Sequence record: NC_048186.1 | From: Escherichia phage vB_EcoM_KWBSE43-6 | DNA length: 64,000 nt | Strand: one strand, 5' to 3' | Shown here: one piece after another, positions 4,175 to 59,052 of the stretch | How the letters are laid out: each line of letters opens with the position of its first letter | Position numbering within the stretch: position 1 is the stretch's first letter | Notes under the pieces: generated by a model | What the model saw: only the letters and a program-made list of their open reading frames with translations | What the model was told of the DNA's origin: nothing | Databases searched by the model: none | Made by a program: the position numbers and the translations under genes

Positions 4175-4212
4175 CTAAATACCCCATATTGGTAACGCCT
4201 TATGGGGTATTT
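4175..4212 (+). promoter_or_regulatory. late-promoter-like CTAAATA box inside a 12-bp perfect palindrome abutting the start codon
   Basis: CTAAATA 4175-4181; arms AAATACCCCATA 4177-4188 and TATGGGGTATTT 4201-4212; ATG at 4216. Confidence 0.5.
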
Positions 4213-4215
4213 CAA

Positions 4216-6797: not shown

Positions 6798-7097
6798 ATG
6801 ATTAAAGCAATCAAAGGGGATTTCACTGCTGTAACTTCAGTAGGAGAAATTTCATATCAATACGCTACTGTCCAGACTTTTCGGGGAGATGCAACGAGCG
6901 TGACCGTAGATGTATTTCTTTCCGATCGCTGGATTATCCAACGGGACGGGATCAATGTGGTAGATGATACTGCGCCTGGATTTTTCAAATCTGTACAGTT
7001 TGCTCCTGATTGGCAGAGCAGTTTGAATATCATAGATCAGGCTTATGAATATTTGAAAAGTCTTCCAGAGTTTTCAAATTCTACTGATGTTGTATAA
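6798..7097 (+). CDS. hypothetical protein, 99 aa
   Basis: ATG 6798 with GGAGG 8 nt upstream; overlaps end of preceding tail-spike gene. Confidence 0.5.
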   Translation: MIKAIKGDFTAVTSVGEISYQYATVQTFRGDATSVTVDVFLSDRWIIQRDGINVVDDTAPGFFKSVQFAPDWQSSLNIIDQAYEYLKSLPEFSNSTDVV

Positions 7098-7130
7098 AGT
7101 TAAGGGGGCTAGACCCCCTTAACTTATTTT
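7097..7130. terminator. bidirectional rho-independent terminator
   Basis: 12-bp perfect stem AAGTTAAGGGGG / CCCCCTTAACTT, loop ctaga, T-tract after; A-tract before serves the minus strand. Confidence 0.6.
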
Positions 7131-18181: not shown

Positions 18182-18920
18182 GATTCGGGACAAAGATTCA
18201 TTTATGAATTATGTCCTTCGTAAATTGGGTGCGCCTGTCATCCAAATCAACCTCGACAAAACACAAGTTGAAGACGCGGTTGATGATGCTTTACAGAAGT
18301 TTTGGGAGTACCATCGCGACGGTAGCCAAGATGCATTCTTCCTTTACCAGGTGAAGCAGGAAGACATCGATAAAGGATATATCACCTTTCCAGAAGATAT
18401 CGATGACGTTGTCGAAGTTATCCAAGGGCCACCAATTGAATCTATCGGTAACTGGGCAACCCCCCAGTGGCAGATGGCTCAGGCGATGTTAGTGCCCAAA
18501 GCTGCTTTGGTATCTATCCGTCTTATCGATTATGTCTCTATGCAGCAGCGCCTTTCCGATATCACCAGCGTCCTCAATGTCCGCAGGGCATTCGTCTACA
18601 AGAAATTCCAGCGCCGTCTGTACCCTCAATTCTCAGCTGTTATCGACGAAGTCCTGGCGTTCAAGTGCTACCAGAACATCGACCCCACAGCGGAAGAGAA
18701 CACAGAAGCATGGAATGACATGTGGCTGAAGGCTTATGCGACCGCATTGGTAAAACGCCGCTGGGCGGAAGTGCTCAAAAAGGCCCGAGGCATCCGTCTC
18801 CCTGGCGGGATAGAACTGGATGGCGATAGTATGTTCAGCGAGGCCGAGGCCGAGATCGAGCGCCTGGAAGAAGAACTGCGTACTGGTCAGCAGTATCCCA
18901 TCGACTTCTTTATGGGATAA
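18168..18920 (+). CDS. gp13: neck protein gp13
   Basis: ATG 18168 with AAGGAGG upstream; VLRKLGAPVIQINLDK...EYHRDG and C-terminal LPGGIELDG match T4 gp13 as remembered. Confidence 0.85.
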   Translation: MAVNKIRDKDSFMNYVLRKLGAPVIQINLDKTQVEDAVDDALQKFWEYHRDGSQDAFFLYQVKQEDIDKGYITFPEDIDDVVEVIQGPPIESIGNWATPQWQMAQAMLVPKAALVSIRLIDYVSMQQRLSDITSVLNVRRAFVYKKFQRRLYPQFSAVIDEVLAFKCYQNIDPTAEENTEAWNDMWLKAYATALVKRRWAEVLKKARGIRLPGGIELDGDSMFSEAEAEIERLEEELRTGQQYPIDFFMG

Positions 18921-18924
18921 CAAA

Positions 18925-18950
18925 AAGCCGGGGTTTCCCGGCTTTCTTTT
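18925..18950. terminator. rho-independent terminator (bidirectional)
   Basis: AAGCCGGG gttt CCCGGCTT then TCTTTT; stop of minus ORF lies at its 3' edge. Confidence 0.6.
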
Positions 18951-19161
18951 AGAGTTTGATATCCCGAGGGCCGGGTAGCGCAGTCGCCTGAATATACCCA
19001 TCATGGACGTTATTACTGTCCCACCATTCAATGAAGTCATTCCCGTCAGATTGTTTTACCAAACCGACGATATCATAATCACCACCTGCAATTTTAGCAT
19101 CCACACAGATGATTCTTACTCGACTTCCATCACGAGTTTCTTTGATATCTTCTACTTGCAT
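18949..19161 (-). CDS. hypothetical protein, 70 aa, opposite orientation between neck genes
   Basis: ATG (minus) 19159-19161 with GAGGA 8 nt upstream. Confidence 0.4.
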   Translation of the reverse strand: MQVEDIKETRDGSRVRIICVDAKIAGGDYDIVGLVKQSDGNDFIEWWDSNNVHDGYIQATALPGPRDIKL

Positions 19162-19192
19162 TCATCAATTCCTCAATAGAATTAAACATCGA

Positions 19193-19199
19193 CTAAATA
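19193..19199 (+). promoter_or_regulatory. late-promoter-like box CTAAATA
   Basis: CGACTAAATACC 30 nt upstream of ATG 19223. Confidence 0.4.
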
Positions 19200-19222
19200 C
19201 CTTCAAAATTGAGGGTATAGTC

Positions 19223-19864
19223 ATGGCCACTTCAAAATATTTCAACTACACGAACCACCAAGGCACGCAGAAGTTAATTGATGACCTCGTGGTGGAGATG
19301 ATACAATTACGTGGGATCGACGTCAAGTATATTCCACGCGCCATTTATGAAAAATACCCAATTTTAAACGAAGCCGAACATCGTTTCGACCAGGCGTTTG
19401 ATATTGAGGTCTATATGCAGGATTATCAGGGCTTCAACACCCAAATGTGGGAGAAGTTCGGTGGTATCCAGCTACAAGATGAGGTGACATTTACTATCGC
19501 CCGTCGCCGCTTTGCGGAAGTTATTGGTAACGGACCAGGACTGGATCAACAACCTCAGGAAGGGGATCTCATTTATCTTCCGATGGCGAATAAAATATTC
19601 AAGGTCAATAACCCGAATAATGACGAAGACTTCATGCAATTCGGTAAATGGTACACGTATTCATTACCATGTACCTTGTTCCAGTATGGCAACGAAGACT
19701 TCGATACTGGTGTCCCTGAAATTGATGATATTGATAAACGTCTTCAAGATCTTGAAGGTGATGGGGTTTACCAGGATGCTACTCTCCAAACAGACAACCA
19801 GTTTGCTGATGAGATCGAAGAAGATCTGGCCCCCAATAATGTCAAAATAGATTTTGGAGAATAA
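19223..19864 (+). CDS. gp14: neck protein gp14-like
   Basis: ATG 19223 after GAGGG; position between gp13 and gp15 homologs; size and acidic C-terminus consistent. Confidence 0.65.
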   Translation: MATSKYFNYTNHQGTQKLIDDLVVEMIQLRGIDVKYIPRAIYEKYPILNEAEHRFDQAFDIEVYMQDYQGFNTQMWEKFGGIQLQDEVTFTIARRRFAEVIGNGPGLDQQPQEGDLIYLPMANKIFKVNNPNNDEDFMQFGKWYTYSLPCTLFQYGNEDFDTGVPEIDDIDKRLQDLEGDGVYQDATLQTDNQFADEIEEDLAPNNVKIDFGE

Positions 19865-31784: not shown

Positions 31785-31812
31785 AAACCCCGCCATGTGC
31801 GGGGTTTTTCTT
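31785..31812 (+). terminator. rho-independent terminator (sequence repeated at 49594)
   Basis: AAACCCCGC catgt GCGGGGTTT TTCTTT. Confidence 0.65.
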
Positions 31813-32426: not shown

Positions 32427-32464
32427 AGAGAGGGCGCAGTCGCGCCCTTTTATTTGGGGGTTTT

Positions 32465-32713
32465 ATGTACTCAAATATTTCAAACTCTGAAGCCCTGTCT
32501 TTGGCTAAACGATACCATTGCTTCAAGTCCCGCGCCGGGCATTCCTGGGATAAAAAGGCGTGGATCAAGCAATTACAGATACAAATAGAGATAATGGAAT
32601 CTCTATCCACTCAGTGCGGAAATAACCCATTCGCTGCCCGTTGTCTTGAACAAGAGTATGCAACTCTTAAAATGCAACTGAACACTGCGATGTCACACGT
32701 TTTGCACTCTTAA
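32465..32713 (+). CDS. hypothetical protein, 82 aa
   Basis: ATG 32465 after hairpin GGGCGC agtc GCGCCC. Confidence 0.5.
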   Translation: MYSNISNSEALSLAKRYHCFKSRAGHSWDKKAWIKQLQIQIEIMESLSTQCGNNPFAARCLEQEYATLKMQLNTAMSHVLHS

Positions 32714-32742
32714 CTTTTCAATAAACAGATTTCAATTATTAT
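32714..32742 (+). promoter_or_regulatory. early-promoter-like element (-35 CTTTTC, 17 bp, -10 TATTAT)
   Basis: -35 immediately followed by AATAAAC; 30 nt upstream of ATG 32772. Confidence 0.35.
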
Positions 32743-32771
32743 TCACCCACAATCTAAACGAGGAACAACTG

Positions 32772-32978
32772 ATGGCCCGCGAAGACAATTCACAGATTTC
32801 TACCAACGCCAACTCAACCTTCAATGAGTGGCACAACACCCTTGAGCGCGTAGCACGTTCTCAAGGTGGTTCAGCTGCTGACGCCGATGCCTGGCGTGAA
32901 GATTATGACAATGGCAAGACTCCGCGCCAGGCATGGGAAGACGAATGGGGATGGGAAGATGCAGACACTAATTCGTAA
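32772..32978 (+). CDS. hypothetical protein, 68 aa
   Basis: ATG 32772 with GAGGAA upstream. Confidence 0.45.
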   Translation: MAREDNSQISTNANSTFNEWHNTLERVARSQGGSAADADAWREDYDNGKTPRQAWEDEWGWEDADTNS

Positions 32979-33189
32979 AATCTTTCTGGATAAAAAGGGG
33001 ATGGAATCAAAGGTCGAAATCATCACGACTCAAAAATTGTTTGAGAAAGGTGAAACTCGATACTATCTTAATGTGTTCCTTTACCTTCCAGAATGCAGCC
33101 TGAACCGCGATATTACCCAACCGGATGGAACTGTGGTCCGTTGGGAAATAGCCAAACAGGAAGATGTTGAAAAAGACATATCACTTTGA
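32959..33189 (+). CDS. hypothetical protein, 76 aa
   Basis: First in-frame ATG giving minimal overlap with upstream gene. Confidence 0.4.
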   Translation: MQTLIRKIFLDKKGMESKVEIITTQKLFEKGETRYYLNVFLYLPECSLNRDITQPDGTVVRWEIAKQEDVEKDISL

Positions 33190-33204
33190 AGCGAGATCTA
33201 TATC

Positions 33205-33642
33205 ATGACAAATAAATTCATTTTTCTGGACGTTCGCGGTAAACGATTCTTCAAAACCGATCTGGACGAAAAGACAGAAGGGTTCCAGGGGCGATTATCA
33301 TATTTGTTGCCGACAGGCGATATCGACACCCAAAGATATGTGGCGGATGTACGGGATCTCCTGGATTGTGGTTGGGTTGAAATTCCTAACCCCCAGGTGT
33401 TGACCGTCAACCTGTATTACATGAAGGAAAGTGGGAAGTATTATTCCAATGGAGAACTCCACCTCCTTCGTTCTGAAGTCACTGCCGATCCAGCCAAGAG
33501 TTGGTACAATGCTAGAGAAACCGTCCGGAAGATGGTTGATGAAGGCAATTTGCCTGGCCTGGTATCCGGTTCTCGTTACGATGTGTTCATGTCCTGTGAA
33601 GAGCACCCGTGTTATGTGCCCACTTTGGTGAAGGTGAAATGA
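33205..33642 (+). CDS. hypothetical protein, 145 aa
   Basis: ATG 33205. Confidence 0.55.
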   Translation: MTNKFIFLDVRGKRFFKTDLDEKTEGFQGRLSYLLPTGDIDTQRYVADVRDLLDCGWVEIPNPQVLTVNLYYMKESGKYYSNGELHLLRSEVTADPAKSWYNARETVRKMVDEGNLPGLVSGSRYDVFMSCEEHPCYVPTLVKVK

Positions 33643-34022
33643 TGGAACTCTTAACTGTTGGTGACGTTTTCGAATTGACGCCGGATATGAAAATCGGCAC
33701 AAATGTCCCTAATCATTTCCTGTATTCAAATCGAGTAGGTGATTGGACGCTTTCTCATGGGAGCGTATATCCAGAAGGCGTGTTTGATTATATGCTTGGG
33801 AATTATGTGGTCACCAAAACTGCCAAAGACGGCGGTGGTACTGGTCATGGCCCAGGCGACGTCTATCCCGACGGGCATCACGTTTGGGCGCAGAATGTGG
33901 ACAACGAGAATATCGTAATTGATTTCTATCAGACTGGTTGTTTCACTAATATGCATCGTAATGTGTCCGTCATCGGAAAAGCAAAGGCTCAGAAATGGTC
34001 TTGGGAACGTTTAGATGGGTAG
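33639..34022 (+). CDS. hypothetical protein, 127 aa
   Basis: ATGA overlap with upstream stop. Confidence 0.55.
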   Translation: MMELLTVGDVFELTPDMKIGTNVPNHFLYSNRVGDWTLSHGSVYPEGVFDYMLGNYVVTKTAKDGGGTGHGPGDVYPDGHHVWAQNVDNENIVIDFYQTGCFTNMHRNVSVIGKAKAQKWSWERLDG

Positions 34023-34179
34023 ATCCCTCGTTTCTCATCATTACCGTGACCTCATAAAGCGTCTGGAGCGCAAAGGTATCTTTGAGGGAATGGATAAAGA
34101 AAAGGTGAAGGTCTTGAAAGAAGAAATTCATGAAGCCATTAAAGACACTTCTCGTTCCACATATTTCAAAACTTTATAG
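34015..34179 (+). CDS. small protein, 54 aa
   Basis: ATG 34015 overlapping upstream stop; not in ORF track; weak SD. Confidence 0.3.
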   Translation: MGRSLVSHHYRDLIKRLERKGIFEGMDKEKVKVLKEEIHEAIKDTSRSTYFKTL

Positions 34180-34189
34180 GCTATAACAA

Positions 34190-34630
34190 ATGAAAACTCT
34201 CGAACAAATTTTAGAAGGTCATAAAACAGGAACTTTGTCAGCGGCTTTAGACGGTCGTGACCTGGTTCGCCTGTCTCAGTTTTTGACAGTTGAGCAAATT
34301 GAAAGTCTGGGATTGTCTTTCGAATCTTCTGAAAAACGTGAATCCCATGTCCCGGTTGAATTCACCAAAGAAAATATCCTGAAACAACTGGAAAAGGACG
34401 TCGCCTTTGGGTTTGAAAAGGCTCTGAATCGTCGTGGGATTAGTTCTAGCCTTATGTACGAAGTCGTACAAATGTGGAACTGTATCCTTGAAGAAGGTCT
34501 CGAAGATTTTGATTCGTATGCGATGTACGGCCTTCCTCTGTTTAAAGCAACTGCTGTCAAATACGGGTTTGACAACCCAATCGGTGATGACACAGGTGCC
34601 GAAGATCATTATGAAGAGCAGGGCTATTAA
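34190..34630 (+). CDS. hypothetical protein, 146 aa
   Basis: ATG 34190. Confidence 0.55.
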   Translation: MKTLEQILEGHKTGTLSAALDGRDLVRLSQFLTVEQIESLGLSFESSEKRESHVPVEFTKENILKQLEKDVAFGFEKALNRRGISSSLMYEVVQMWNCILEEGLEDFDSYAMYGLPLFKATAVKYGFDNPIGDDTGAEDHYEEQGY

Positions 34631-34631
34631 T

Positions 34632-34868
34632 ATGCGTATCAAAAAGATCGGATCCAGCCCGCTGACTGGTACTATCTTCTACGGCACCCTGGAAACCAAA
34701 ACCAGCATGTGGGTAGGGGATAAAATTGATGTCACCGAAGAGTGTGTCGCAGCGACGGCTGAGCATATGCGTCATATCAAGAAAGACTACTGCTACAAAA
34801 CGCCTGATGGAAAATATCTGGTGTTGTCTGCTGAAGTCCACGATACTCTTCCGGACAGATTCAAATAA
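34632..34868 (+). CDS. hypothetical protein, 78 aa
   Basis: ATG 34632 two nt after upstream stop. Confidence 0.5.
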   Translation: MRIKKIGSSPLTGTIFYGTLETKTSMWVGDKIDVTEECVAATAEHMRHIKKDYCYKTPDGKYLVLSAEVHDTLPDRFK

Positions 34869-34891
34869 TTTAAAAATATTCAATAAACGGG

Positions 34892-34920
34892 GTTTACTTC
34901 TTCAATAAACCCCGTATACT
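34892..34920 (+). promoter_or_regulatory. early-promoter-like element (-35 GTTTAC, 17 bp, -10 TATACT)
   Basis: Matches T4 early promoter pattern as remembered; contains 17-mer TTTACTTCTTCAATAAA also found at 52830. Confidence 0.4.
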
Positions 34921-34969
34921 TCATTTCATAAGCAGTACGACACCAACTCTGAAATGAAGGAACTATATC

Positions 34970-35392
34970 ATGATCACTCCCAACATCACCGCCTATGCGT
35001 TTGACGACTTCGCCAATTTTGATTCATTCATCAAGAAATTTGGTGTGAATTCCGTCGAAGCCAAGCAATTGTATGGTTCCGATCGTCTGAGCAAAACCGC
35101 CCAGATCAAAGCTACGTTGGAAGAACTGATTGAGTCCTTGGGTGAATCCTTCCGCGCCAAAATCTATAAGAAGGACGGTGGCCTGCGCCAACTGAAAGGC
35201 AAGACTGTCATTCATGAGGCTGATCAATTTACCGTATCTATGCATTTCACGTTCAAGCCTGAATATGAACTTTTTTCCAACGGCGAGGATTCCACCCATT
35301 ACGTCATAGCCAAAGGTAGCAATCGCCCAGTATTTGAATCCGGTGATATCATGGCAGCAATCAATGAAATGGAACGCCTGAATAAAGCATAA
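34970..35392 (+). CDS. hypothetical protein, 140 aa
   Basis: ATG 34970 with GAAGGA upstream. Confidence 0.55.
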   Translation: MITPNITAYAFDDFANFDSFIKKFGVNSVEAKQLYGSDRLSKTAQIKATLEELIESLGESFRAKIYKKDGGLRQLKGKTVIHEADQFTVSMHFTFKPEYELFSNGEDSTHYVIAKGSNRPVFESGDIMAAINEMERLNKA

Positions 35393-35421
35393 CTATTCAA
35401 TAGTCACTATCGGGGTATGAT
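35393..35421 (+). promoter_or_regulatory. early-promoter-like element (-35 CTATTC, 17 bp, -10 TATGAT)
   Basis: TTCAATA-N9-GGGGTATGAT shared with 47033 and 53390. Confidence 0.35.
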
Positions 35422-35461
35422 AAACTTCGTACCCTACACAAATTGATGAGGTCTATATATC

Positions 35462-35722
35462 ATGGCTTGTGCGTCATCTATTCCGAAAATGCTTATCCTG
35501 AAATGGTATGAGCACAGTATTTATGCTCGCATCAAATCAGCTGCGAAAGAGGGTCGAAAAACGATCGAATTATTCCGTCCTTGCGCATCCTCCAAAGCGC
35601 ATCGCGATACATTCGTCTTACTGCGTGAATTGGAACGACTCGGCATCAAAATCGAACCTATGCCATGCAGTAACCCGATGGTCAATCTCTTCGTTCTGAG
35701 CAATTTTGAGAATTTGGAATGA
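35462..35722 (+). CDS. hypothetical protein, 86 aa
   Basis: ATG 35462. Confidence 0.5.
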   Translation: MACASSIPKMLILKWYEHSIYARIKSAAKEGRKTIELFRPCASSKAHRDTFVLLRELERLGIKIEPMPCSNPMVNLFVLSNFENLE

Positions 35723-36162
35723 ATACGATTATCCTCATAACTGGTTCGCGTTCTATTACGGAGCGCGACAAAATCTTTGAAAAGTTAGACGAACTTTCTC
35801 ATACAGATTCCGTTTGTAATCTGTATCATCCGTGCGATACCCTATTGATCGCTGGGGAGGCTGTCGGCGTCGATACGATCTGCAAAGATTGGGCTGAATC
35901 CAGAGGGGTGACTTATCTCGGGATGCCTATCCCCGATGAATACTTCGCTACATATGGGAAAGGGGCTGGAAACAAACGCAACCAGGACATGTTAGACAAG
36001 GCGTTGGAGTTATCACAGAAATACAAGGCGGAGATACTGCCTCTGGCTTTCTGGGACGGTTCATCGACTGGTACGCAGGATATGATCAAACGAATCAACA
36101 AAGCAGGGTTGCATTGTAAGGTCATGCTCTTGGGTAAGCCAAAAACCAAACGCCTTCTGTAA
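35719..36162 (+). CDS. SLOG-like (YpsA/DUF2493-type) Rossmann-fold protein, 147 aa
   Basis: N-terminal ILITGSRS strand-loop, central IAGEAVGVD glycine loop, C-terminal WDGSSTGT; pattern recalled from SLOG family. Confidence 0.45.
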   Translation: MNTIILITGSRSITERDKIFEKLDELSHTDSVCNLYHPCDTLLIAGEAVGVDTICKDWAESRGVTYLGMPIPDEYFATYGKGAGNKRNQDMLDKALELSQKYKAEILPLAFWDGSSTGTQDMIKRINKAGLHCKVMLLGKPKTKRLL

Positions 36163-36185
36163 TTTGTTAACACTGGAGACGTCCC

Positions 36186-36353
36186 ATGATCATTTTTCAA
36201 CTGTTTTGCTATTTGTTCACTCTGTACTTTCTGGTTGCTGTCGGTTATGAAACCTTCCGTGACCTGGCATCGAGCCAGTATGCGTCCAAACTGGTTTATG
36301 CTAAGAAATTTGCTGTCCGCTTCTGGAGCAATTTTCTGTATCGCCTCCCCTGA
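36186..36353 (+). CDS. small membrane protein, 55 aa
   Basis: ATG 36186 with GGAGA upstream; N-terminal hydrophobic helix; not in ORF track. Confidence 0.35.
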   Translation: MIIFQLFCYLFTLYFLVAVGYETFRDLASSQYASKLVYAKKFAVRFWSNFLYRLP

Positions 36354-36354
36354 T

Positions 36355-36383
36355 TTAAATACCCCCATCAATTGGGGGTATTT
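36355..36383 (+). promoter_or_regulatory. late-promoter-like box TTAAATA inside an 11-bp palindrome abutting the start codon
   Basis: Arms AAATACCCCCA 36357-36367 and TGGGGGTATTT 36373-36383, 5-nt loop; ATG 36388. Confidence 0.5.
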
Positions 36384-36387
36384 TCTT

Positions 36388-37116
36388 ATGAACGCACAAA
36401 TTTATGACGCCCTTGAACAAGGCAATGCATTTAACAATCCTCTCCCGGGATTCTCTGCTACTTCTCAGACGTTAATCACCAGTGGCCAACAAAGTATAGC
36501 TGGTATTACAAGCATCCCGGATACGTCCGTTCAGGCGGCGATAACCGCTGGTGGTTTGACTCCTGCTAAACTCAATACAATGAACACCATGTACGGGACT
36601 GCCAACACCGGGATCGGGACTCTGAATTCTTATGGTGACCAGACCGTTAATGAGGCATACAATAGGATCGGAACTTCAGTATCCTATAAATCCGGCCTCA
36701 AAAGTATTGAACGAGAACCCACCAACTGTGATTTGATTAACAACGCATTCGGTGTTGTACAGACACTTGGTCGTCAATGGTTGACTGCAATGGAGGATGC
36801 CTTATCTCCAATAACAGACAAAGTTCAAGAACTGTATGATCTGGCCAAACAAGGCGCGGCGGCGGGGCTGGCCAAAATACAGGCATTAGCCTCACAGGTC
36901 AACGGATTAATCAATGACGCTGTAGCAAAGGTGAATGGTGTTATTCAGAACATCACTGATGGGATAGCTGCTGAGTTAGCTCATATTGAAGATATGGTGA
37001 AGAAGTGTCTTAATTTCTCCTTTGCTAATGTTCTTGGCGAATGGGCAAAAGATCTTTGCGCAGGCGGTGTCATCAACAATATCGGTTCTAATGATCTGAA
37101 AAATGCCCTGAAATAA
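36388..37116 (+). CDS. hypothetical late protein, 242 aa, coiled-coil-rich (possible virion component)
   Basis: ATG 36388; same palindromic late element as two tail-spike genes. Confidence 0.6.
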   Translation: MNAQIYDALEQGNAFNNPLPGFSATSQTLITSGQQSIAGITSIPDTSVQAAITAGGLTPAKLNTMNTMYGTANTGIGTLNSYGDQTVNEAYNRIGTSVSYKSGLKSIEREPTNCDLINNAFGVVQTLGRQWLTAMEDALSPITDKVQELYDLAKQGAAAGLAKIQALASQVNGLINDAVAKVNGVIQNITDGIAAELAHIEDMVKKCLNFSFANVLGEWAKDLCAGGVINNIGSNDLKNALK

Positions 37117-37767
37117 TCAGGGCACAGTCCTTGCTGGCAGAACTCCCACTGGCTCAATACCTTCCACCAGGAGGGAGTTCACGCCTACATCGCTCAACCT
37201 AATCCATATCTTCCCACCAGGCTTAATTTCAAAAACGTTCATTTCATTTCCAACCGCTTCATTATTCACAAATACACCTTGTGTTGCGATCCTGATAGGC
37301 TTCTTCGTGTTGTTTGTGATTTGAAATGTAACAGTTATATCCGTGGTCAGATTAACTCCCTGTTTCATGGTGTAGCGTTTTATTTTGTCGTAGAATGATG
37401 GATTGAATGTGATGATGATGCTGTTGTTCTGTGAGTAATAAATACTTGCTGACAAGTAAGGAATTTTGCCTTCTTCCCCTTTGCGTAAAAGAGGGATGGT
37501 GGTTTTCCAGTATGGTCGCAAAGTGTCTTTATTGTCATCAAAACAACCGACAGGCTGGAGATTTTGGAAACTTTGAAACAAAATAGTGGCCTCATCCAGC
37601 ATGGATTTTTCACATTTGTTGCTGTCTGTTGAAATGGTTACTGGTACAACACGGACATCAGTATCCCAGAGGTCACTAACGGAAATGATGGGCGTGACGA
37701 AAATACGGCAACTTGTCAATACAAGTACCATAAAAATCATCACAATCCATCTTCTGATTCCGCGCAT
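37117..37767 (-). CDS. predicted lipoprotein, 216 aa
   Basis: Minus ATG at 37765-37767; signal peptide MRGIRRWIVMIFMVLVLTSC with lipobox LTSC; stop abuts stop of converging plus gene. Confidence 0.6.
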   Translation of the reverse strand: MRGIRRWIVMIFMVLVLTSCRIFVTPIISVSDLWDTDVRVVPVTISTDSNKCEKSMLDEATILFQSFQNLQPVGCFDDNKDTLRPYWKTTIPLLRKGEEGKIPYLSASIYYSQNNSIIITFNPSFYDKIKRYTMKQGVNLTTDITVTFQITNNTKKPIRIATQGVFVNNEAVGNEMNVFEIKPGGKIWIRLSDVGVNSLLVEGIEPVGVLPARTVP

Positions 37768-47029: not shown

Positions 47030-47058
47030 GTTTTCAATAACTGTAATCGGGGTATATT
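47030..47058 (+). promoter_or_regulatory. early-promoter-like element (-35 GTTTTC, 17 bp, -10 TATATT)
   Basis: TTCAATA-N9-GGGGTATATT; 66 nt upstream of ATG 47124. Confidence 0.35.
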
Positions 47059-47123: not shown

Positions 47124-49160
47124 ATGTCAGATTTTAAACCCTTCGCAGTTGCTGTAAAGAATCAAATCACCGCGATGTCCAGCAATGGCCTGTACATGAC
47201 TTCGGTTGACAAAGACGCCCTGTGGGATCTGTACCTGTCATCTTTCCCGGAAGGCACGAACAACATCTACCGCGAGCGCACTGAGCACGATTGCACCTGC
47301 TGCAAGCAATTCATCCGTAACATCGGCGGCGTCGTATCGATTGACGCTGATCTGAACCTGGTTACTGTGTGGGACAGCGTCAATCTGGGTAACGAATACG
47401 AAGTGGTGGCGGCAGCGCTGGCCAAATATGTCAAGCAGCACAACATCGTCGGCGTTTACTTCAACGATTCAGCTAAGGTGAGCGTAGAAAGCAACCACGA
47501 AATGGGTGAAAACGGTAAAGTCCGCACCTACGACCATTTCCACGCCGTTCTGAACAATAAATTCGTCCTGCGCGGCGAAGATATCGCCTCCACCAAAGGC
47601 GAAATTTCCCAATCCATTGAAGTATTTGAGCGCAGCATGCGTGAGCTGACTATGGAATCGGCTGAAATCGTCCTGGAACTGATCGATCAGAATTCTCTGT
47701 ATCGCGGCGAAGAGCATCGTTCGGCTGTACAAAGTTTTGTGCAGAGCAAAACCGAATACATGAAAATTCGCTCCGATCTGAAACAACTTTGGGCCTGGCG
47801 AACTGGTTGGTTGTCTAAAAACCATAAGCCGTTCGGCATCCGCAATACTGTCATCGGCACCCTGCTGACCGATCTTTCTGACGGCGTTGAAATGGAAAAG
47901 GCGGTGAAATCCTTTGAAACCAAAGTCGCTCCGACCAACTACCGCCGCCCGACTGCCCTGGTCACCAAAGGTATGATCGAAAAGGCGCAGAAAACGGTTG
48001 CCGAACTCGGCCTGACTGAATCTTTGGGTCGCCGCTATGCGAAGTATGAAGACCTGACGATCAACAACGTGCTGTTCGCCGATATCGATGCGCGGAAAGC
48101 TATGGATCCGTTCGATCAATTGGCGCAGGAAGTCAAAGTGACTGAAAAGTCGCTGGGTAAAATTGAAGAGATCAGCGTCGATGATTTCATCAAAAACGTT
48201 ATCCCGAAAGCGCGTTCCATGGAAGTGATGTTTGAAGGACGTCATACCGCCAACCTGATGTCTCTGGTCGCACCGGAAACTCAAGGCGCTCCGAACCTGT
48301 TCAAATGGGGTAATAATTTCTCCTGGTCCTACAACGGTGAAGTTGCTGATTCCATCAAAGAGCGCGTGAAAGCCGCTGGTGGTAACGTTGATTCATTCCT
48401 GCGCATTTCGCTGGCCTGGTTCAACAATGACGACCTGGACCTGCACATGTACACTCCGACGAACGAACACATTTATTTCTCTCGCGGTTGCCGCCGTTCT
48501 TACCATACTGGTGGTGAGTTGGATATTGACATGAACGGTATGGATGGGATCAACAAAGAGCGTAAACCGGTTGAGAACATCTTCTTCAAAGACAAGAACA
48601 TGCTGCGTGATGGCGTGTACCGTTTCATCGTCGACAACTATGCCCAGCGTGAAACCATCGACACCGGGTTCATCGTTGAGGTGGAATATGAAGGCGACCT
48701 GAAACGTTTCTCCTGTGAAAAAGGTCTGAAGAATAAACAGCAGATGACCGTCATTGAACTGCGCGTCAAAGACAAAAAGGTTGTTGAAATTCAGTCTTCC
48801 CTGGTGCCGACAACTGGCGTGGAAACTGAAATTTGGGGTATCCGTACCCAGAATTTCCAGAAGGTGCAACTGGTCCTGAATTCTCCTAACCACTGGGACG
48901 GTGAACAGACCGGAAACCGACATCTGTTCTTTATCCTGGAAGGTTGTATCAACCCGGCCAGCACTCGCGGCTTCTACAATGAATATCTGAAGCCGGAATT
49001 GGCACCGCATGGCAAGGTTTTTGAAATGTTGGGCGCTAAAATGAGAGCAGAACCGAGTGATAAGCAACTCAGCGGCCTGGGCTTCTCTTCCACTCAGCGC
49101 AATTATGTCCTGGTGAAGGTAAGCGGTTCATTTAATCGTGTAGTCAAAGTCGTTTTTTAA
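47124..49160 (+). CDS. hypothetical protein, 678 aa
   Basis: Long ORF with good start context; HDCTCCKQF cysteine cluster near N-terminus; no Walker motifs. Confidence 0.6.
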   Translation: MSDFKPFAVAVKNQITAMSSNGLYMTSVDKDALWDLYLSSFPEGTNNIYRERTEHDCTCCKQFIRNIGGVVSIDADLNLVTVWDSVNLGNEYEVVAAALAKYVKQHNIVGVYFNDSAKVSVESNHEMGENGKVRTYDHFHAVLNNKFVLRGEDIASTKGEISQSIEVFERSMRELTMESAEIVLELIDQNSLYRGEEHRSAVQSFVQSKTEYMKIRSDLKQLWAWRTGWLSKNHKPFGIRNTVIGTLLTDLSDGVEMEKAVKSFETKVAPTNYRRPTALVTKGMIEKAQKTVAELGLTESLGRRYAKYEDLTINNVLFADIDARKAMDPFDQLAQEVKVTEKSLGKIEEISVDDFIKNVIPKARSMEVMFEGRHTANLMSLVAPETQGAPNLFKWGNNFSWSYNGEVADSIKERVKAAGGNVDSFLRISLAWFNNDDLDLHMYTPTNEHIYFSRGCRRSYHTGGELDIDMNGMDGINKERKPVENIFFKDKNMLRDGVYRFIVDNYAQRETIDTGFIVEVEYEGDLKRFSCEKGLKNKQQMTVIELRVKDKKVVEIQSSLVPTTGVETEIWGIRTQNFQKVQLVLNSPNHWDGEQTGNRHLFFILEGCINPASTRGFYNEYLKPELAPHGKVFEMLGAKMRAEPSDKQLSGLGFSSTQRNYVLVKVSGSFNRVVKVVF

Positions 49161-49196
49161 GTTAAAATATAACCGAATTCAATTGAGGATACAAAA

Positions 49197-49568
49197 ATGT
49201 TTGATAAAGCAACCCGTCTGAAACTGCGTTTCAACTCCAACAAAGGACAGCTGTCCGTTGAGCAGGTGTGGGATCTGAGCCTGACTGCTCTGAACGAAAT
49301 GGCGAAAGGTCTGAGCCGCGAACTGAAAGCTGCTGCGGTCGACGATGAAGATTTCATCGGCAACAATACATCCGTCGACTCTCAGCTGCAACTGCGCTTT
49401 GACATCGTCAAAAGCATCATCAGCACCAAGCTGAAAGAGCGCGATGACAGCCTGTCCGCTGCAGAAAAACGTGAGCACAACCAGGCCATCCTGGAACTCA
49501 TCAAGAAGAAACAGCAGGAAGAGCTGGCGGGTAAATCTGTTGAAGAACTGCAAGCCCTGCTGAAATAA
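49197..49568 (+). CDS. hypothetical protein, 123 aa
   Basis: ATG 49197 after GAGGA. Confidence 0.5.
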   Translation: MFDKATRLKLRFNSNKGQLSVEQVWDLSLTALNEMAKGLSRELKAAAVDDEDFIGNNTSVDSQLQLRFDIVKSIISTKLKERDDSLSAAEKREHNQAILELIKKKQQEELAGKSVEELQALLK

Positions 49569-49593
49569 ATCCGCTGCCTTTGGCGCGATAATG

Positions 49594-49620
49594 AACCCCG
49601 CCATGTGCGGGGTTTGTTGT
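49594..49620 (+). terminator. rho-independent terminator (same hairpin as 31785)
   Basis: ACCCCGCCATGTGCGGGGTTT identical to 31786-31806. Confidence 0.6.
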
Positions 49621-49694
49621 ATCCATCAGCAATAAAGCCTCATTCAATATACGTGGGCATATAATATCCTAGTGTTAAACAGTGGAGAAGATTT

Positions 49695-50051
49695 ATGTCG
49701 GTCAAAATGAAAGGTGCCGAGTTTAAAGCATACTACGATGACTCAGAGTATTGGGTTCAGGATGCTTGGCATGATTATCACAACATAAAGGTTAATGGCG
49801 AATATATCGACGATATTGAAACTGAGAATATTCCCGACGAGGCTGATGTGGTTATTGAGTCGGGGATAGTTTATATTCCCATCAGAAGTGAATCCGGTTA
49901 TGAAGAAAAAGAAGTCCAACTGGTCACTCACATCAAGAACTGGCGCAAACAGCAGAAATTTTCTACTATTGTCGTGGTAGTTGAAAAAGACAAAGCTGAA
50001 GAAATTATAGCCTCAATTAAAACGATACCTGGCGTCAATACCGTCAAGTGA
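49695..50051 (+). CDS. hypothetical protein, 118 aa
   Basis: ATG 49695 after GGAGAAG; perfect TATAAT at 49660. Confidence 0.5.
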   Translation: MSVKMKGAEFKAYYDDSEYWVQDAWHDYHNIKVNGEYIDDIETENIPDEADVVIESGIVYIPIRSESGYEEKEVQLVTHIKNWRKQQKFSTIVVVVEKDKAEEIIASIKTIPGVNTVK

Positions 50052-50058
50052 GGCGATA

Positions 50059-50202
50059 ATGGATTCCTGTCTATTAGATCCCGAGAACGTTCTTGTGGTT
50101 GAAATTGAAAACAACAAGCCGTTCATTTTGAAAATGTTGGAGAAGGATAATAATCCTGAAACCAATCCTAAACTATCCCAAAAGGGGAATAACGATGATT
50201 GA
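50059..50202 (+). CDS. small protein, 47 aa
   Basis: ATG 50059 after GAGG; not in ORF track; overlaps next gene start. Confidence 0.3.
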   Translation: MDSCLLDPENVLVVEIENNKPFILKMLEKDNNPETNPKLSQKGNNDD

Positions 50203-52448
50203 ATCATTAGAATTTAAGAATGCCACACAGACGGTCGCTCCTTCCAATCACGTCATCGTCGTTGACATTTCTTATTCCATGTGTTATGCGCTGCCGAAAC
50301 TGCGCCAGCACCTGAAAGAAAACCTGCCCTCCCTGGTTAAGCCGGAAGACACCGTCAGTATTCTGTACTTCTCTTCTCGTGGCGACTTCGGTACTGTGTT
50401 CGCTGGGCGCCAGGTCACCAACGCATCTGACCTGAGTGAGCTGGGTAAACTGATCGATCGCTTCCTGCAACCAACTGGCTGCACCGGATTTGTTGAGCCG
50501 CTCAAGCTGGCTATCGAAACCGCCAACGATCTGAAAAAGTCCGGCGTCATCAATTCCCTGGTGTTCATGACCGACGGTTATGACAACTGCTGGCGTTCCA
50601 GTGAAATTCTCGCGGTCGCAGAGCAGCTGCCAAAGGCGTACGACAACATCACGCTGATCGAATACGGCTGGAACTGCAACCGGGAACTGCTGCAGAAAAT
50701 GGCAGAGTGCTCTGGTGCCACCCATGTATTCGCCGAAGGCCAGGAAGAATATCAGATCGAACTGGAAACAGCGATGGTTTCTGTCGCTCCGCGCGTTCGC
50801 GTTGATTTCAGTATCATCTATTCCTATGCCGTTTATATCGAAAACGGGATTCCGACCATCCTGGCCGCCCAGTCTGATGAAGACCATCCTATCAATTACG
50901 TCAACATCCCTGAGAGCGTCTCTAAGCTGTGGGTTGTTGATCCTGATATGATCGACCAACTGGATAACCTGGCGGACGTTGAAGCGGCATATGTGCTGGC
51001 TCTCTTTGGCGTGCATACTATGGATGCCGACCTGGTGTGGGCCGCGCTGAAAAAGACTGGCGATGTGCGCTTCATTAAACAGTACACCAACTGCTTCACC
51101 AAGCAGGATTATTCCAACATCAAAACTGACATCACAGCAGCGATTGTAGACCCGGCGCTGCGCGGTGTGGACGGTATCGATTACAATCTGGTGCCGCCGG
51201 AAGACGCAACTACTGTTGTTGATGTTCTGACTTACCTGGCGGGAGCAGATGCACAACTGGTTGTTGACCATCCCCTGTTCTCTTACAAGCGGATCGGTCG
51301 CGGTACGGTACAAAAAGCCGACGATACCGAAGACAAGCTGGCGGCAGAAATTGCCGAAGCCAAATCTAAAGAAGAGCGTAAAGCGCTGGCCCTGAAACTG
51401 GCTGAGCACGAAGACTGGACTCCTGTGTTTGAGCCGGTGAAAGGCGCGGGCGTTCCCATCAGCAATCTGGTTTACAACTCGGCCCGCCCGAACATCAGTC
51501 TGCAGACTGTGCAAAACGGGACCGTCATCATCCCGAAGTTCGCACAAAAGAAATACGATCTGCCTGAATCTATTGATACGTGGCAGTGGAAGAACTACAC
51601 CAAAGAAATACGATCTGCCTGAATCTATTGATACGTGGCAGTGGAAGAACTACACCATCGTCAAAGACGGTATCATCCATATGAAGACCCTTCCTGTGGT
51701 CTGCTCGGTGGAAACCGTATCTGAACTGGTTAGCAAAGGCGTTGAAGTTTACGGCGGGCCGGAAGTGTTCATCGTAAATCTGGGCAGCGTTCCTCTGGTT
51801 AACCGCGCGATGGTTAAGAACATCAGCGCCGCGCAGTTCTTTGCTGACCACGTCCGTCTGGAATCCCTGAAAGCCAAGCAGAAGGTTCTCAAATATTTCC
51901 GTGACGAACTGGTTGGGAAAGGTAATGCCGTGGGCCTGGCAGGCAAATACGGCTTTGAAGCGGCTGAGTTTTTGTCTGCGAATGGCATCCGCGATTACGG
52001 CTTCTCTCCGAAGACCGCTTCGGTTGAGTCTACTGATTTCTACATGAGCCGCGAACTCAATGTGAAGATCAAAGGCGCTTCCTCGCTGCCGTCAATTGCC
52101 GCCGTTCTGAAGAAACAGGCCGACAACAAAAAACTGAACGCAGCTGATCAGCTGATCGCTAATGCGCTGGCAGAATACAACGCCTTTGTCAAATCTCCGG
52201 CGGTGACTGCAGTTCCGGAAGCAACGCAGGCCAAGATCATTGAATCTTGGATCAGTGATGCTGCCAAGGCTGCTATCACCCAAGTCCGTGAGCTGAACAA
52301 GACCCTGTCCAAATCTCTGTATGCCATCGTTGCAGGCCATGGCTGGTTCACCGACCTGGATCTGGAAGAGTCCACCATGGAAGTGGAAGTTGATGGCGTC
52401 AAATACACCGTCAGTGCAGTCCTGGAAGAGAAAGAGATCAAAATCTAA
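50195..52448 (+). pseudogene. vWA-domain protein gene split into two ORFs (50195-51622, 51573-52448) by a 55-bp tandem duplication
   Basis: N-terminal vWA/MIDAS motifs (VVVDISYSM, FMTDG); removing one repeat copy restores a single ORF of about 732 aa with KKYDLPESIDTWQWKNYT read once. Confidence 0.6.
51547..51656. repeat. perfect 55-bp direct tandem duplication (2 copies)
   Basis: AAAGAAATACGATCTGCCTGAATCTATTGATACGTGGCAGTGGAAGAACTACACC at 51547-51601 and 51602-51656; 55 is not a multiple of 3. Confidence 0.9.
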
Positions 52449-52456
52449 TCAACTGT

Positions 52457-52478
52457 GCCGGGGAAACCCGGCCTTTTC
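52457..52478 (+). terminator. rho-independent terminator
   Basis: GCCGGG gaaa CCCGGC CTTTTC. Confidence 0.55.
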
Positions 52479-52492
52479 ATAAGGTATCCCAA

Positions 52493-52816
52493 ATGTCTAA
52501 GAATGTGTCTTATATCGATGTCATGCGCTTCCTTGTCCAGTATGCAAGTGACAATCTGAATATGGAACTGTGGCGTGAGAAGAAACACTCCGTAACAATA
52601 CAATCCGCGATTGACAAAATCGAAGATCAGCTGGAATCCCTGGCTCCTCTGCGCGTCAAAGAACATCTGGGTGGCGATGAACTTGACGCGATAGAGATCA
52701 TCATGGACCTGGAAGAAGAATATGATGTAGAGATCACGGATTATTGGGTCGGTTCTCATAAAGACGACCCAACCCTGGGTGAATTGGCAGAGCATGTGGT
52801 GCATCTTTTAAAATAA
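52493..52816 (+). CDS. acyl carrier protein-like protein lacking the phosphopantetheine-attachment serine, 107 aa
   Basis: EHLGGDELDAIEIIMDLEEEYDVEITD aligns with ACP [26 protein letters not shown]; canonical DSL is DEL. Confidence 0.65.
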   Translation: MSKNVSYIDVMRFLVQYASDNLNMELWREKKHSVTIQSAIDKIEDQLESLAPLRVKEHLGGDELDAIEIIMDLEEEYDVEITDYWVGSHKDDPTLGELAEHVVHLLK

Positions 52817-52828
52817 TTTTGAAGTTGG

Positions 52829-52857
52829 CTTTACTTCTTCAATAAATGATTTAATAT
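52829..52857 (+). promoter_or_regulatory. early-promoter-like element (-35 CTTTAC, 17 bp, -10 TAATAT)
   Basis: Contains 17-mer TTTACTTCTTCAATAAA identical to 34893-34909. Confidence 0.35.
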
Positions 52858-52909
52858 TAATTTTGTAGGGCGGGAACGGCTCCCGCCTGATTGAAGAAGG
52901 CACTATATT

Positions 52910-53155
52910 ATGGAACAACTACTCCCCGAATCCGTATGCACATACGTGCGCCTCGCAGGTGAAGGCCACGATGTAGCAACTCAACTTACCGACCTCATTC
53001 TGAGCTACGGTATCAAGAAAGTTAATTCCGTTGACAACTCTGGTGTGAAAGGCGACTATATCGTTCTGAACCACCGCGGTCTGAAGACCAATCCGGTATT
53101 TTTCGTCGGCGTTCATAAGAAAGATGGCCAGGAAGTCGTGGAGATCGTATCGTGA
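52910..53155 (+). CDS. hypothetical protein, 81 aa
   Basis: ATG 52910 after GAAGAAGG and hairpin GGGCGGG...CCCGCC. Confidence 0.5.
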   Translation: MEQLLPESVCTYVRLAGEGHDVATQLTDLILSYGIKKVNSVDNSGVKGDYIVLNHRGLKTNPVFFVGVHKKDGQEVVEIVS

Positions 53156-53388
53156 GTAATAAGAAAGTCGAAACCACGGTTGAAATTGAAAAGAATTGGG
53201 GTTTCCTGCGTGCTAAAGGTTTCCGCCGTGTGTATGCTGCGAAGGAAGTCTATGTCCAGCGTAAGGACGTTATCATTAGCAAGAAAGGTAAGTCCTGGGT
53301 GGCAGAAGAAGTAGACGAAGACGGCATCGTAGGCAAGATTAAGGCCAAGGCCGAAATCCTCTTCGCTCTTCTGAAGCAAATTAACTAA
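53152..53388 (+). CDS. hypothetical protein, 78 aa, basic
   Basis: GTG start overlapping upstream stop, GGAGA 7 nt upstream. Confidence 0.45.
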   Translation: MSNKKVETTVEIEKNWGFLRAKGFRRVYAAKEVYVQRKDVIISKKGKSWVAEEVDEDGIVGKIKAKAEILFALLKQIN

Positions 53389-53414
53389 AATCAATAACAC
53401 GGACGGGGTATGAT
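53386..53414 (+). promoter_or_regulatory. early-promoter-like element (-10 TATGAT in GGGGTATGAT context)
   Basis: ATCAATA-N8-GGGGTATGAT; overlaps hairpin GACGGGG...CCCCGTC so the two roles conflict. Confidence 0.3.
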
Positions 53415-53447
53415 TGCCCCGTCTATTTGAAATGCAGGAACTATACC

Positions 53448-53918
53448 ATGACCCGTATTAATGTCATTCCCGTTGAATCTCTGTGTGATCAGCATTTGCT
53501 CGCTGAATATACCGAACTGGCGCCTGTTGTCCTTAATGTTGTGAATGGAAAACGTCGCAATCTCAAAGGCGCTCCAAAACATTACAAACTCAACGAAGGT
53601 CATGTGTTATTTTTCCGGGACAAACTGATTTATCTGATTGAGCGCTATGACCAACTTGTCACTGAACTGATATCTCGCGGGTATACCGTGAATTATCCTT
53701 CTCTTCGAAATCAGATAACTCATGAGAACAAACAGGAACTCCGGATTTATCTAAATGATTATCAACCGACTCAAGCTGCAGTCCAAGAAAATGTGGAACG
53801 CATAGTCGAAAGGTTGAAGGGTATGGGCAAAATAACGTATAACAGAAAGCCCGTAGATCCTTCTTATATGGTTGGCGTCATGAAACAGAATTTCGAATTT
53901 GGTGAGGTGGCATTATGA
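53448..53918 (+). CDS. denV: endonuclease V (pyrimidine dimer DNA glycosylase) DenV
   Basis: MTRINVIPVESLCDQHLLAEYTELAPV...GHVLFFRDKL matches T4 DenV N-terminus. Confidence 0.8.
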   Translation: MTRINVIPVESLCDQHLLAEYTELAPVVLNVVNGKRRNLKGAPKHYKLNEGHVLFFRDKLIYLIERYDQLVTELISRGYTVNYPSLRNQITHENKQELRIYLNDYQPTQAAVQENVERIVERLKGMGKITYNRKPVDPSYMVGVMKQNFEFGEVAL

Positions 53919-58927: not shown

Positions 58928-58976
58928 AACAAATTCGGCCAGTACCAGGCGCACTGCGCAGGCAGGTACAAAGAGG

Positions 58977-59003
58977 AAGCCGGGGATTACCCCGGCTTTT
59001 TCG
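58977..59003 (+). terminator. rho-independent terminator
   Basis: AAGCCGGGG atta CCCCGGCTT TTTCGTTCTT. Confidence 0.65.
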
Positions 59004-59052
59004 TTCTTGGGATTCGGGTAAACTATACTGACACCCCCAAAGGAGAAATCAA

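Follow-up and report, generated by a model that had tools for sequence, protein, structure and literature searches.

The 64,000-nt stretch of Escherichia phage vB_EcoM_KWBSE43-6 analysed here (NC_048186.1; hereafter the window) carries, at positions 36355-36387, a 33-nt hairpin element that ends immediately before the ATG (position 36388) of a gene for a 242-amino-acid (aa) protein of the DUF7217 family. The question raised by this locus is what such an element does, since one part of it resembles a late-promoter box, another is a Shine-Dalgarno (SD) sequence, and the whole looks like a rho-independent terminator. The answer proposed here is that the element is probably a composite control module in the style of phage T4, placed where a series of small non-structural genes gives way to the gene of a late virion protein, in which a late promoter, a terminator and a translational gate share the same bases.

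The bases 36355-36390, which come just after the TGA of the upstream open reading frame (ORF), read in order T, TAAATA, CCCCCA, tcaat, TGGGGG, TATTT, tctt and ATG. The features of the locus are the following.

36354-36361, + strand: late-promoter-like box TTTAAATA, with the core TAAATA at 36356-36361.
36357-36367, + strand: hairpin 5′ arm AAATACCCCCA, with CCCCC at 36362-36366.
36367-36372, + strand: predicted late start zone (A36367 and the loop), ~6-8 nt past the box by analogy with T4.
36373-36383, + strand: hairpin 3′ arm TGGGGGTATTT, with the SD sequence GGGGG at 36374-36378.
36380-36387, + strand: U-rich tract ATTTTCTT, which overlaps the base of the stem.
36388-37116, + strand: DUF7217 gene, 242 aa (Pfam PF23854; all-alpha).

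An earlier note on this DNA had described an 11-bp stem with TTAAATA in its left arm, 4 nt before ATG 36388, and this description holds: the two arms, 11 nt each, are 100% complementary, they enclose a 5-nt loop (TCAAT, 36368-36372), and the RNA hairpin folds at -17 to -18 kcal/mol. The fold has a z score of -3.7, with none of 200 shuffled sequences as stable, and 0.00 chance matches to the exact palindrome pattern are expected from shuffles of the window. The distance from the end of the stem to the ATG is 4 nt, and that from the GGGGG to the A of the ATG is 9 nt. When partition-function folding was applied, the SD bases were paired with the promoter arm at a probability of ~1.0, and the AAAUA of the left arm was paired with the UAUUU that opens the U-rich spacer. 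The predicted late leader, which would start 6 nt past the box, was unstructured (-2 kcal/mol). A ribosome-binding site (RBS) is annotated on the same bases in phage Magnus. Because the GGGGG of the right arm is the RBS, the CCCCC at 36362-36366, just after the box, can be read as an anti-SD sequence, and the U-rich tract at 36380-36387 would serve both as terminator tail and as the spacer between SD and AUG. An Rfam scan of 35300-37300 revealed no known RNA family, the best sub-threshold match being NsiR1 (23.9 bits; gathering score, 39).

By analogy with T4, we infer the transcription start, the late timing, the efficiency of termination and the translational block, and the module would then work as follows. 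At the DNA level, the left arm would act as a gp55-type late promoter box (TTTAAATA). Transcripts coming from upstream promoters would copy the entire palindrome, which would fold at about -17 kcal/mol with CCCCC paired to the SD and AAAUA to UAUUU, and they would either be terminated at the UUUUCUU tail or be read through without ribosome loading at the DUF7217 start. In the late phase, RNA polymerase with the phage late sigma factor would start ~6-8 nt past the box, within the loop or where the left arm ends; the box extends to 36361 and the left arm to 36367, and the distance is assumed from T4, where about one helical turn separates the late box from the start that follows it (PMC2988020). 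The late mRNA would lack the 5′ arm, its 21-nt leader would be unstructured, and DUF7217 would be translated. The translational gate put forward in the earlier note is consistent with an SD fully paired to the promoter arm, with the weak fold of the late leader (-2 kcal/mol) and with the mechanism known from T4.

As for the promoter, the box TTTAAATA matches the T4 late box TATAAATA at 7 of 8 positions; in T4-type late promoters, such a box occupies the -10 position and there is no -35 element. In addition, bases 36355-36365 (TTAAATACCCC) match CTAAATAcCcc at 10 of 11 positions, with T for C at position 1; this is the "unique regulatory motif" of the Viunalikevirus, taken here, as in all comparisons with it, in the form in which it is cited in PMC7283392. 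The orthologous sites of Limestonevirus and Agtrevirus match this cited form at 11 of 11 positions, some Kuttervirus sites are exactly TATAAATA, and in EspM4VN one of the five motif sites that the cited source gives (98591-98601) is located 24 nt before the ATG of the ortholog at 98625. A scan for TAAATA placed (C)TAAATA 22-42 nt upstream of the start codons of 13 window genes, nearly all structural, among them four tail spikes, a 1616-aa protein, gp14, sheath and portal-region genes; nine of these genes, again nearly all structural, have the box besides those of the hairpin modules. We regard (C)TAAATA as the putative Ackermannviridae counterpart of the T4 late box TATAAATA. Since the bases 3′ of the box differ among the 13 sites (cccc, caag, attc, tctt and others), the C-run is no promoter requirement and looks like an added anti-SD.

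In the record of phage LIMEstone1, the orthologous site is marked as a "putative late promoter", at coordinates that are a little off. In this record (HE600015, L003:1162-1227) the deposited "-10 signal" is 6 nt from the TAAATA box (1168-1173), and the deposited "terminator" is 30 nt from the actual hairpin (1170-1197); these shifts look like a slip in the record, and the coordinates were taken only as a sign of the annotators' intent. Homologs of gp55, gp33 and gp45 are found in ViI-like phages (PMC3121705, PMC3184105), and the 97%-identical Magnus carries a "sigma factor for late transcription" (CPT_Magnus_126, a gp55 homolog) and a sliding clamp; the late sigma gene, located outside the window, is known from Magnus and the ViI-like phages. 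The match to the motif as cited, the box before nine other genes, the LIMEstone1 annotation and the gp55, gp33 and gp45 homologs all point to a late promoter at this site, as the earlier note had supposed. A promoter reading of the palindrome on the minus strand was rejected, because the reverse arm carries AAAATA and not TAAATA, so that the box is one-directional.

The sequence TAAATACCC was found exactly three times on the + strand of the window (864, 4176 and 36356), each time with a mirror half-site 20-30 nt downstream, and the three copies share the layout (C or T)TAAATACCCC-stem-loop-stem-GGGGTATTT-3 or 4 nt-ATG. The genes behind the first two copies match tail-spike/tail-fibre PHROGs (E of 0 and 7e-89), in agreement with the earlier note, which had called the element at 36355 the third copy and the first on a non-tail-spike gene. 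That note missed a fourth, more diverged copy, and it also missed the terminator-like nature of the hairpin. The sibling modules are the following.

863-908, + strand: sibling module 1, CTAAATA, arms 865-876 / 890-901, ATG 906; -18.6 kcal/mol; before the gene of a 1009-aa tail spike.
4175-4218, + strand: sibling module 2, CTAAATA, arms 4177-4188 / 4201-4212, ATG 4216; -18.5 kcal/mol; before the gene of an 859-aa tail-spike or tail-fibre protein.
19187-19225, + strand: sibling module 4, CTAAATACCTTCA / TGAGGGTATAG-TC-ATG (CTAAATACCTTCAaaatTGAGGGTATAGTCATG); -16.2 kcal/mol, z -5.2; SD and AUG both within the stem; before a gp14-like neck/head-closure gene (phrog_679, start 19223).

A hairpin of -16 to -18.6 kcal/mol, 3 to 5 standard deviations below shuffles, was present at 4 of the 13 late-box sites, two further sites were intermediate, and the rest had none; therefore the hairpin is an added feature of a subset of these sites. 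The inner stems of the paralogous copies differ in sequence and yet pair (CCCCTAG/CTAGGGG, CCCCATA/TATGGGG and CCCCCA/TGGGGG), and the spacing between the arms is 5, 12 or 13 nt.

Among orthologs, both arms and the TAAATA are invariant in Taipeivirus, Kuttervirus, Limestonevirus, Agtrevirus and Miltonvirus, and the loop has 4 to 8 nt (TCAAT, AAAT, TCATCCA and CGAACCTG among the genera). The support for the structure comes from paralogous and analogous modules, not from orthologs. IMG/VR was scanned for TAAATACCCC-N3-33-GGGGTATTT (CCCC/GGGG) and for a CCTC/GAGG variant, and unique elements were counted; an element was scored as start-associated when it was followed, 0-8 nt downstream, by the ATG of an ORF with 40 codons or more, with windows 40 nt further on as the control. 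Start-associated were 41 of the 121 CCCC/GGGG palindromes, against 3 in the control windows, and 65 of the 94 CCTC/GAGG palindromes, against 8. The spacing to the ATG, tallied for the CCCC/GGGG set, peaks at 3-4 nt. When the four positions inside the fixed core were compared in the 52 distinct start-associated modules, 3.2 of 4 pairs were formed on average, with all pair types in use, versus 1.02 +/- 0.15 pairs with shuffled partner arms (maximum 1.52 over 2000 shuffles). Because the inner pairing is so far above the shuffles, it is the folded strand that is under selection, and not just two linear motifs.

The same module (cactTTAAATACCTCTGCAAacaTTGCGGAGGTATTTTCTTATG, -18.2 kcal/mol) precedes the endolysin gene of Magnus, in a region outside the window (MN045230 107420-107454, L132:40417-40455; arms TTTAAATACCTCTGCAA/TTGCGGAGGTATTTTCTTATG); its outer flanks match those of the 36355 copy, and it is annotated only as a "terminator", with the RBS inside. 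Among the IMG/VR loci that carry modules (L013-L251, e.g., L019, L013, L037, L143 and L194), the module is kept before the endolysins of other Ackermannviridae (L182, L198 and L201), with G-U in place of G-C pairs in the stem, and near-identical modules of the form TA(T)AAATACC(C/T)C-stem-loop-G(G/A)GGTATTTTTATG occur in many uncultured T4-like contigs. In unrelated T4-like contigs it was found before a T4-type lysozyme (PF00959, E 6e-50), before a resolvase-like protein (phrog_244) and before gp13-like neck adaptors (phrog_211), and inspection by eye suggests that some of the gated proteins may be GIY-YIG homing endonucleases. The module count per genome is a lower bound, with 28% of the Magnus genome outside the comparison.

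The gene behind the 36355 copy encodes a protein that matches PF23854 over the entire model (E 8.5e-102, 340.3 bits against a cut-off of 29, positions 1-238 of 238) and that is also a full-length member of phrog_2114. DUF7217 homologs are found throughout the Ackermannviridae and, at ~25% identity, in Felixounavirus-type phages. A 242-aa coiled-coil-rich product had been announced in the earlier note; the ORF has this length, and the AlphaFold2 model (19 homologs; pLDDT 77.8, pTM 0.76) is all-helical, with long helices at residues 59-95, 122-154 and 161-206. A PDB sequence search with the protein returned nothing below E 0.07, Foldseek of the model against PDB gave no match at E <= 0.001 (only generic helical bundles, TM <= 0.36), and a BFVD search with the model returned DUF7217 members only. 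The LIMEstone1 ortholog ORF129 (68% identical) was detected by mass spectrometry in purified virions (25.03 kDa, 18.18% coverage, 2 unique peptides; PMC3296691 Table 2), and its record says "confirmed structural protein". The DUF7217 product is a probable late, minor virion protein. Of the virion or lysis-timing role suggested in the earlier note, the first part gains support from the detection of ORF129, and the second is circumstantial only, through the Magnus endolysin module.

The ATG at 36388 is supported as the start because the in-frame upstream extension is not conserved. Relatives annotated with pharokka start the DUF7217 gene at a TTG inside the upstream 55-aa gene and read through the hairpin. 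The 293-aa ORF from TTG 36235, as called in phi1_175010, was rejected, since in 5 of 8 relatives the extended frame runs into a stop in fewer than or at 10 codons, and loop indels that are not multiples of three also rule it out. Likewise, the label "GTP-binding domain" is spurious: phrog_289 is a chimeric 500-column profile made of the upstream SLOG/YspA-type protein and DUF7217. The SLOG/YspA-like protein (PF10686) is encoded at 35719-36162, and the pharokka-annotated relatives give both genes this label.

Termination of incoming transcripts is regarded as a real second function of the hairpin. It has the anatomy of a terminator, namely an 8-bp stem (UACCCCCA/UGGGGGUA) followed by UUUUCUUAU, 3 nt after the TGA, and it is the first + strand terminator-like hairpin of comparable strength after 32461, with no stronger site in 32461-36357. 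A simple terminator scan of the window missed the site because the stem extends into the U-tract, which conflicts with the rule for the start of the T-run; this miss is not evidence against a terminator. The records of Magnus and Mutine have a "terminator" at the hairpin, and Menlow lists the same feature. The element could then be only the rho-independent terminator of the upstream small-gene operon, with the TAAATA as no more than the A-tract that mirrors the U-tract and with DUF7217 expressed from another promoter or by read-through. We consider this unlikely, though it comes closest among the rival explanations. The GC-rich stem, the 5-nt loop, the UUUUCUU tail, the position after the stop codon and the existing annotations are all as expected for a plain terminator, and many of the IMG/VR matches are symmetric palindromes without an ATG, like plain bidirectional terminators. 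However, the hairpin buries an SD 4 nt before the start, and a gene whose product is detected in virions would be left without a route of expression unless a promoter is located inside. Furthermore, the TAAATA is invariant in five genera and the box precedes nine other, nearly all structural, genes without a hairpin, start codons are strongly enriched 3-4 nt downstream, and in some Kuttervirus relatives the U-tract is reduced to TATTTATG with the SD pairing kept. Hence, a terminator alone is insufficient, because it does not account for the invariance of the TAAATA, for the constant spacing to the ATG or for the synthesis of a virion-detected protein; termination is compatible with the composite module as one of its functions, but not as the whole story.

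Slightly more doubtful still is a broader proposal, in which the module is a portable terminator, late promoter and anti-SD gate, distributed from the Ackermannviridae to uncultured T4-like phages, that marks genes not to be made early, and in which DUF7217 is an envelope-acting or otherwise toxic virion protein. The genes so marked may include endolysin, resolvase-like nucleases, homing endonucleases, neck proteins and tail-spike anchors, and DUF7217 could be, for instance, an ejected or lysis-associated factor and not an inert structural part. DUF7217 carries the endolysin-type version of the module (TTTAAATACC...GGTATTTTCTTATG), between the genes of a small membrane protein and a lipoprotein.

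It is improbable that the complementarity is a by-product of a TAAATA box and a UAUUU spacer that happen to lie beside a G-rich SD, with an RNA structure that has no function. T4-type phages commonly have both initiation regions like GAGGTATTTTTATG and boxes like TATAAATA, and AAATA can pair with TATTT by its very sequence; but the hairpin is not automatic, being formed at only 4 of the 13 late-box sites of the window, its free energies (-16 to -18.6 kcal/mol) are 3 to 5 standard deviations below shuffles, and the CCCC/CCTC anti-SD and up to four inner pairs are kept through different sequences, far above what shuffled arms give. The least probable explanation is a palindrome that works at the DNA level, as the operator of a dimeric regulator or as a cruciform or recombination site marking exchangeable cassettes such as the tail spikes: although the outer half-sites AAATACCCC / GGGGTATTT are identical at three places of the window, two of them at borders of tail-spike cassettes, and the tail-spike region is the least syntenic of the family (PMC10892097), the spacing varies (5, 12 and 13 nt in the window, 3-33 nt between the fixed motifs in IMG/VR) unlike that of a fixed dimer, the inner-stem covariation keeps the pairing, as a single strand that folds would, the elements hold their position relative to start codons and not to cassette ends, and no candidate binding protein was identified.

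Several observations weigh against the composite module itself. The segment past the box is CCCCCA and lacks the AT preponderance that T4 late promoters have just downstream of the box (PMC2988020), and this CCCCC might hinder opening; C-rich followers belong to the family motif CTAAATAcCcc as cited, unlike the AT-rich T4 pattern. The copy at 36355 has tTAAATA, and most boxes of the window are CTAAATA. As the arms are invariant among orthologs, there is no covariation at the 36355 locus. For the Ackermannviridae phages, the searchable literature yielded neither mapped 5′ or 3′ termini of transcripts nor the times at which genes are expressed. The genes upstream of the hairpin need not be early or middle ones, and the transcript that enters the hairpin may be a late one in LIMEstone1, in which a separate TAAATA box belongs to the 55-aa gene. 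Finally, the virion evidence consists of 2 peptides in the proteome of one phage (LIMEstone1), and the hypothetical proteins of the Sajous1 virion include no obvious ortholog, with an uncertain mapping of gene numbers.

The precedent for the composite module comes from T4 genes e, soc, 49, I-TevI and segB and from Aeh1 mobE, in which the RBS is hidden in a hairpin and is freed by a late promoter located in the 5′ strand (PMC3014915, PMC2988022); in T4 gene e the hairpin blocks ~100-fold. As in e, soc, 49 and I-TevI, the late box is in the 5′ arm, the SD is in the 3′ arm and the gene is located 3′ of co-oriented genes, and, as in the e group, late transcripts are predicted to begin past the inhibitory strand. 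The Magnus endolysin module parallels that of its functional counterpart T4 e, and the module-gated genes (endolysin, lysozyme, resolvase-like and neck adaptor) closely mirror the T4 list of late genes that lie on longer early or middle transcripts. Unlike in the T4 group, where the box is TATAAATA, the box is here TTTAAATA or CTAAATA followed by a C-run, the SD is GGGGG, the terminator tail is a good one, the gated DUF7217 has no T4 counterpart, and the system is known from sequence alone. The TransTermHP terminators of Magnus, Menlow and Mutine have the same bases, hairpin and U-rich tail as the 36355 element, and these records let the terminator enclose the following gene's RBS and make no remark on it. 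The motif CTAAATAcCcc is reported as linear, and the papers searched do not connect it with a hairpin, an anti-SD or a gate. Public records already mark the site piecemeal, as a late promoter or as a terminator, and the mechanism is established in T4; the locus reveals no new one.

The 2.2-kb stretch around the 36388 locus shares 97-99% identity with Klebsiella phages that belong to Taipeivirus, a genus of the Ackermannviridae (phi1_175010, 0507-KN2-1, Magnus, Menlow and KpS110), and the gene order of the window was read with the annotated Magnus as the guide.

0-12 kb: tail-spike genes, after Magnus.
To ~31.8 kb: neck, terminase, sheath, tube, portal and capsid genes, after Magnus.
31785-31807: strong terminator 3′ of the capsid gene.
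32-36.35 kb: small co-oriented genes, function unassigned.
35396-35421, + strand: candidate early/middle promoter TTCAATAGTCACTATCGGGGTATGAT, one mismatch to TTCAAT[N14]TATAAT.
36186-36353, + strand: 55-aa gene with an N-terminal transmembrane segment, from the ORF list (phrog_4845, E 8.5e-30, full length).
37117-37767, - strand: converging gene of a predicted lipoprotein (DUF7424), 216 aa (Pfam PF24199, E 1.9e-63).
After the converging gene: gp3, UvsY, exonuclease, helicase and replication genes.

The co-oriented ORFs extend from ~32.1 kb to 36353, which leaves a 3-nt gap between the TGA of the 55-aa ORF and the hairpin. The flanking genes are those given in the earlier note, a 55-aa membrane protein and a converging lipoprotein: the 55-aa ORF has a hydrophobic N-terminus (Kyte-Doolittle 19-residue maximum of 2.27 at residue 1), and the converging protein has the lipobox LTSC after a basic and hydrophobic leader (MRGIRRWIVMIFMVLVLTS, then the C), with a "putative signal peptide" in the LIMEstone1 record of its counterpart. 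At 216 aa, this DUF7424 lipoprotein is far bigger than an o-spanin; it could be an envelope or superinfection-exclusion factor.

The sequence TTCAAT[N14]TATAAT is a published motif of the Viunalikevirus, in the form given in PMC7283392, and the candidate promoter at 35396-35421 would feed the co-oriented transcript that enters the hairpin. A near-identical partner of this site is located at 47033-47058, both having TTCAAT-N9-CGGGGTAT(G/A)(A/T)T, and the CGGGG that precedes the -10 hexamer is conserved in the two sites and lies outside the motif as published there. The two sites are possibly the early or middle promoter type of the family. In the Magnus record, whose region 48683-53706 is homologous to window ~21-26 kb, the large terminase gene is annotated as containing an intein, and a GIY-YIG endonuclease is annotated in the interval from the sheath gene to the tube gene. 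Other hairpins with a GC core and A/T flanks, perfect or nearly so, were observed at 7051-7125 (e.g., AAGTTAAGGGGG/CCCCCTTAACTT at 7097-7125), 18918-18951 and 58970-59005, and these look like ordinary, partly bidirectional terminators that are uncoupled to a start codon.

The Ackermannviridae include therapy-relevant phages of Klebsiella, Salmonella and E. coli; no late promoter had been defined for them in 2011, and the words promoter, terminator, transcriptome and regulatory are all absent from the 2024 review that was searched. The composite module would provide a concrete, testable rule for late-gene control in these phages. It would also mend their annotation, since the "terminator" features that swallow an RBS would become composite promoter-gate modules, and the "GTP-binding domain" label and the 293-aa N-terminal extension are spurious. 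Furthermore, DUF7217 is flagged as a late and probably virion-borne protein, and the 33-nt element may be a compact part for engineering late-only expression in Ackermannviridae phages.

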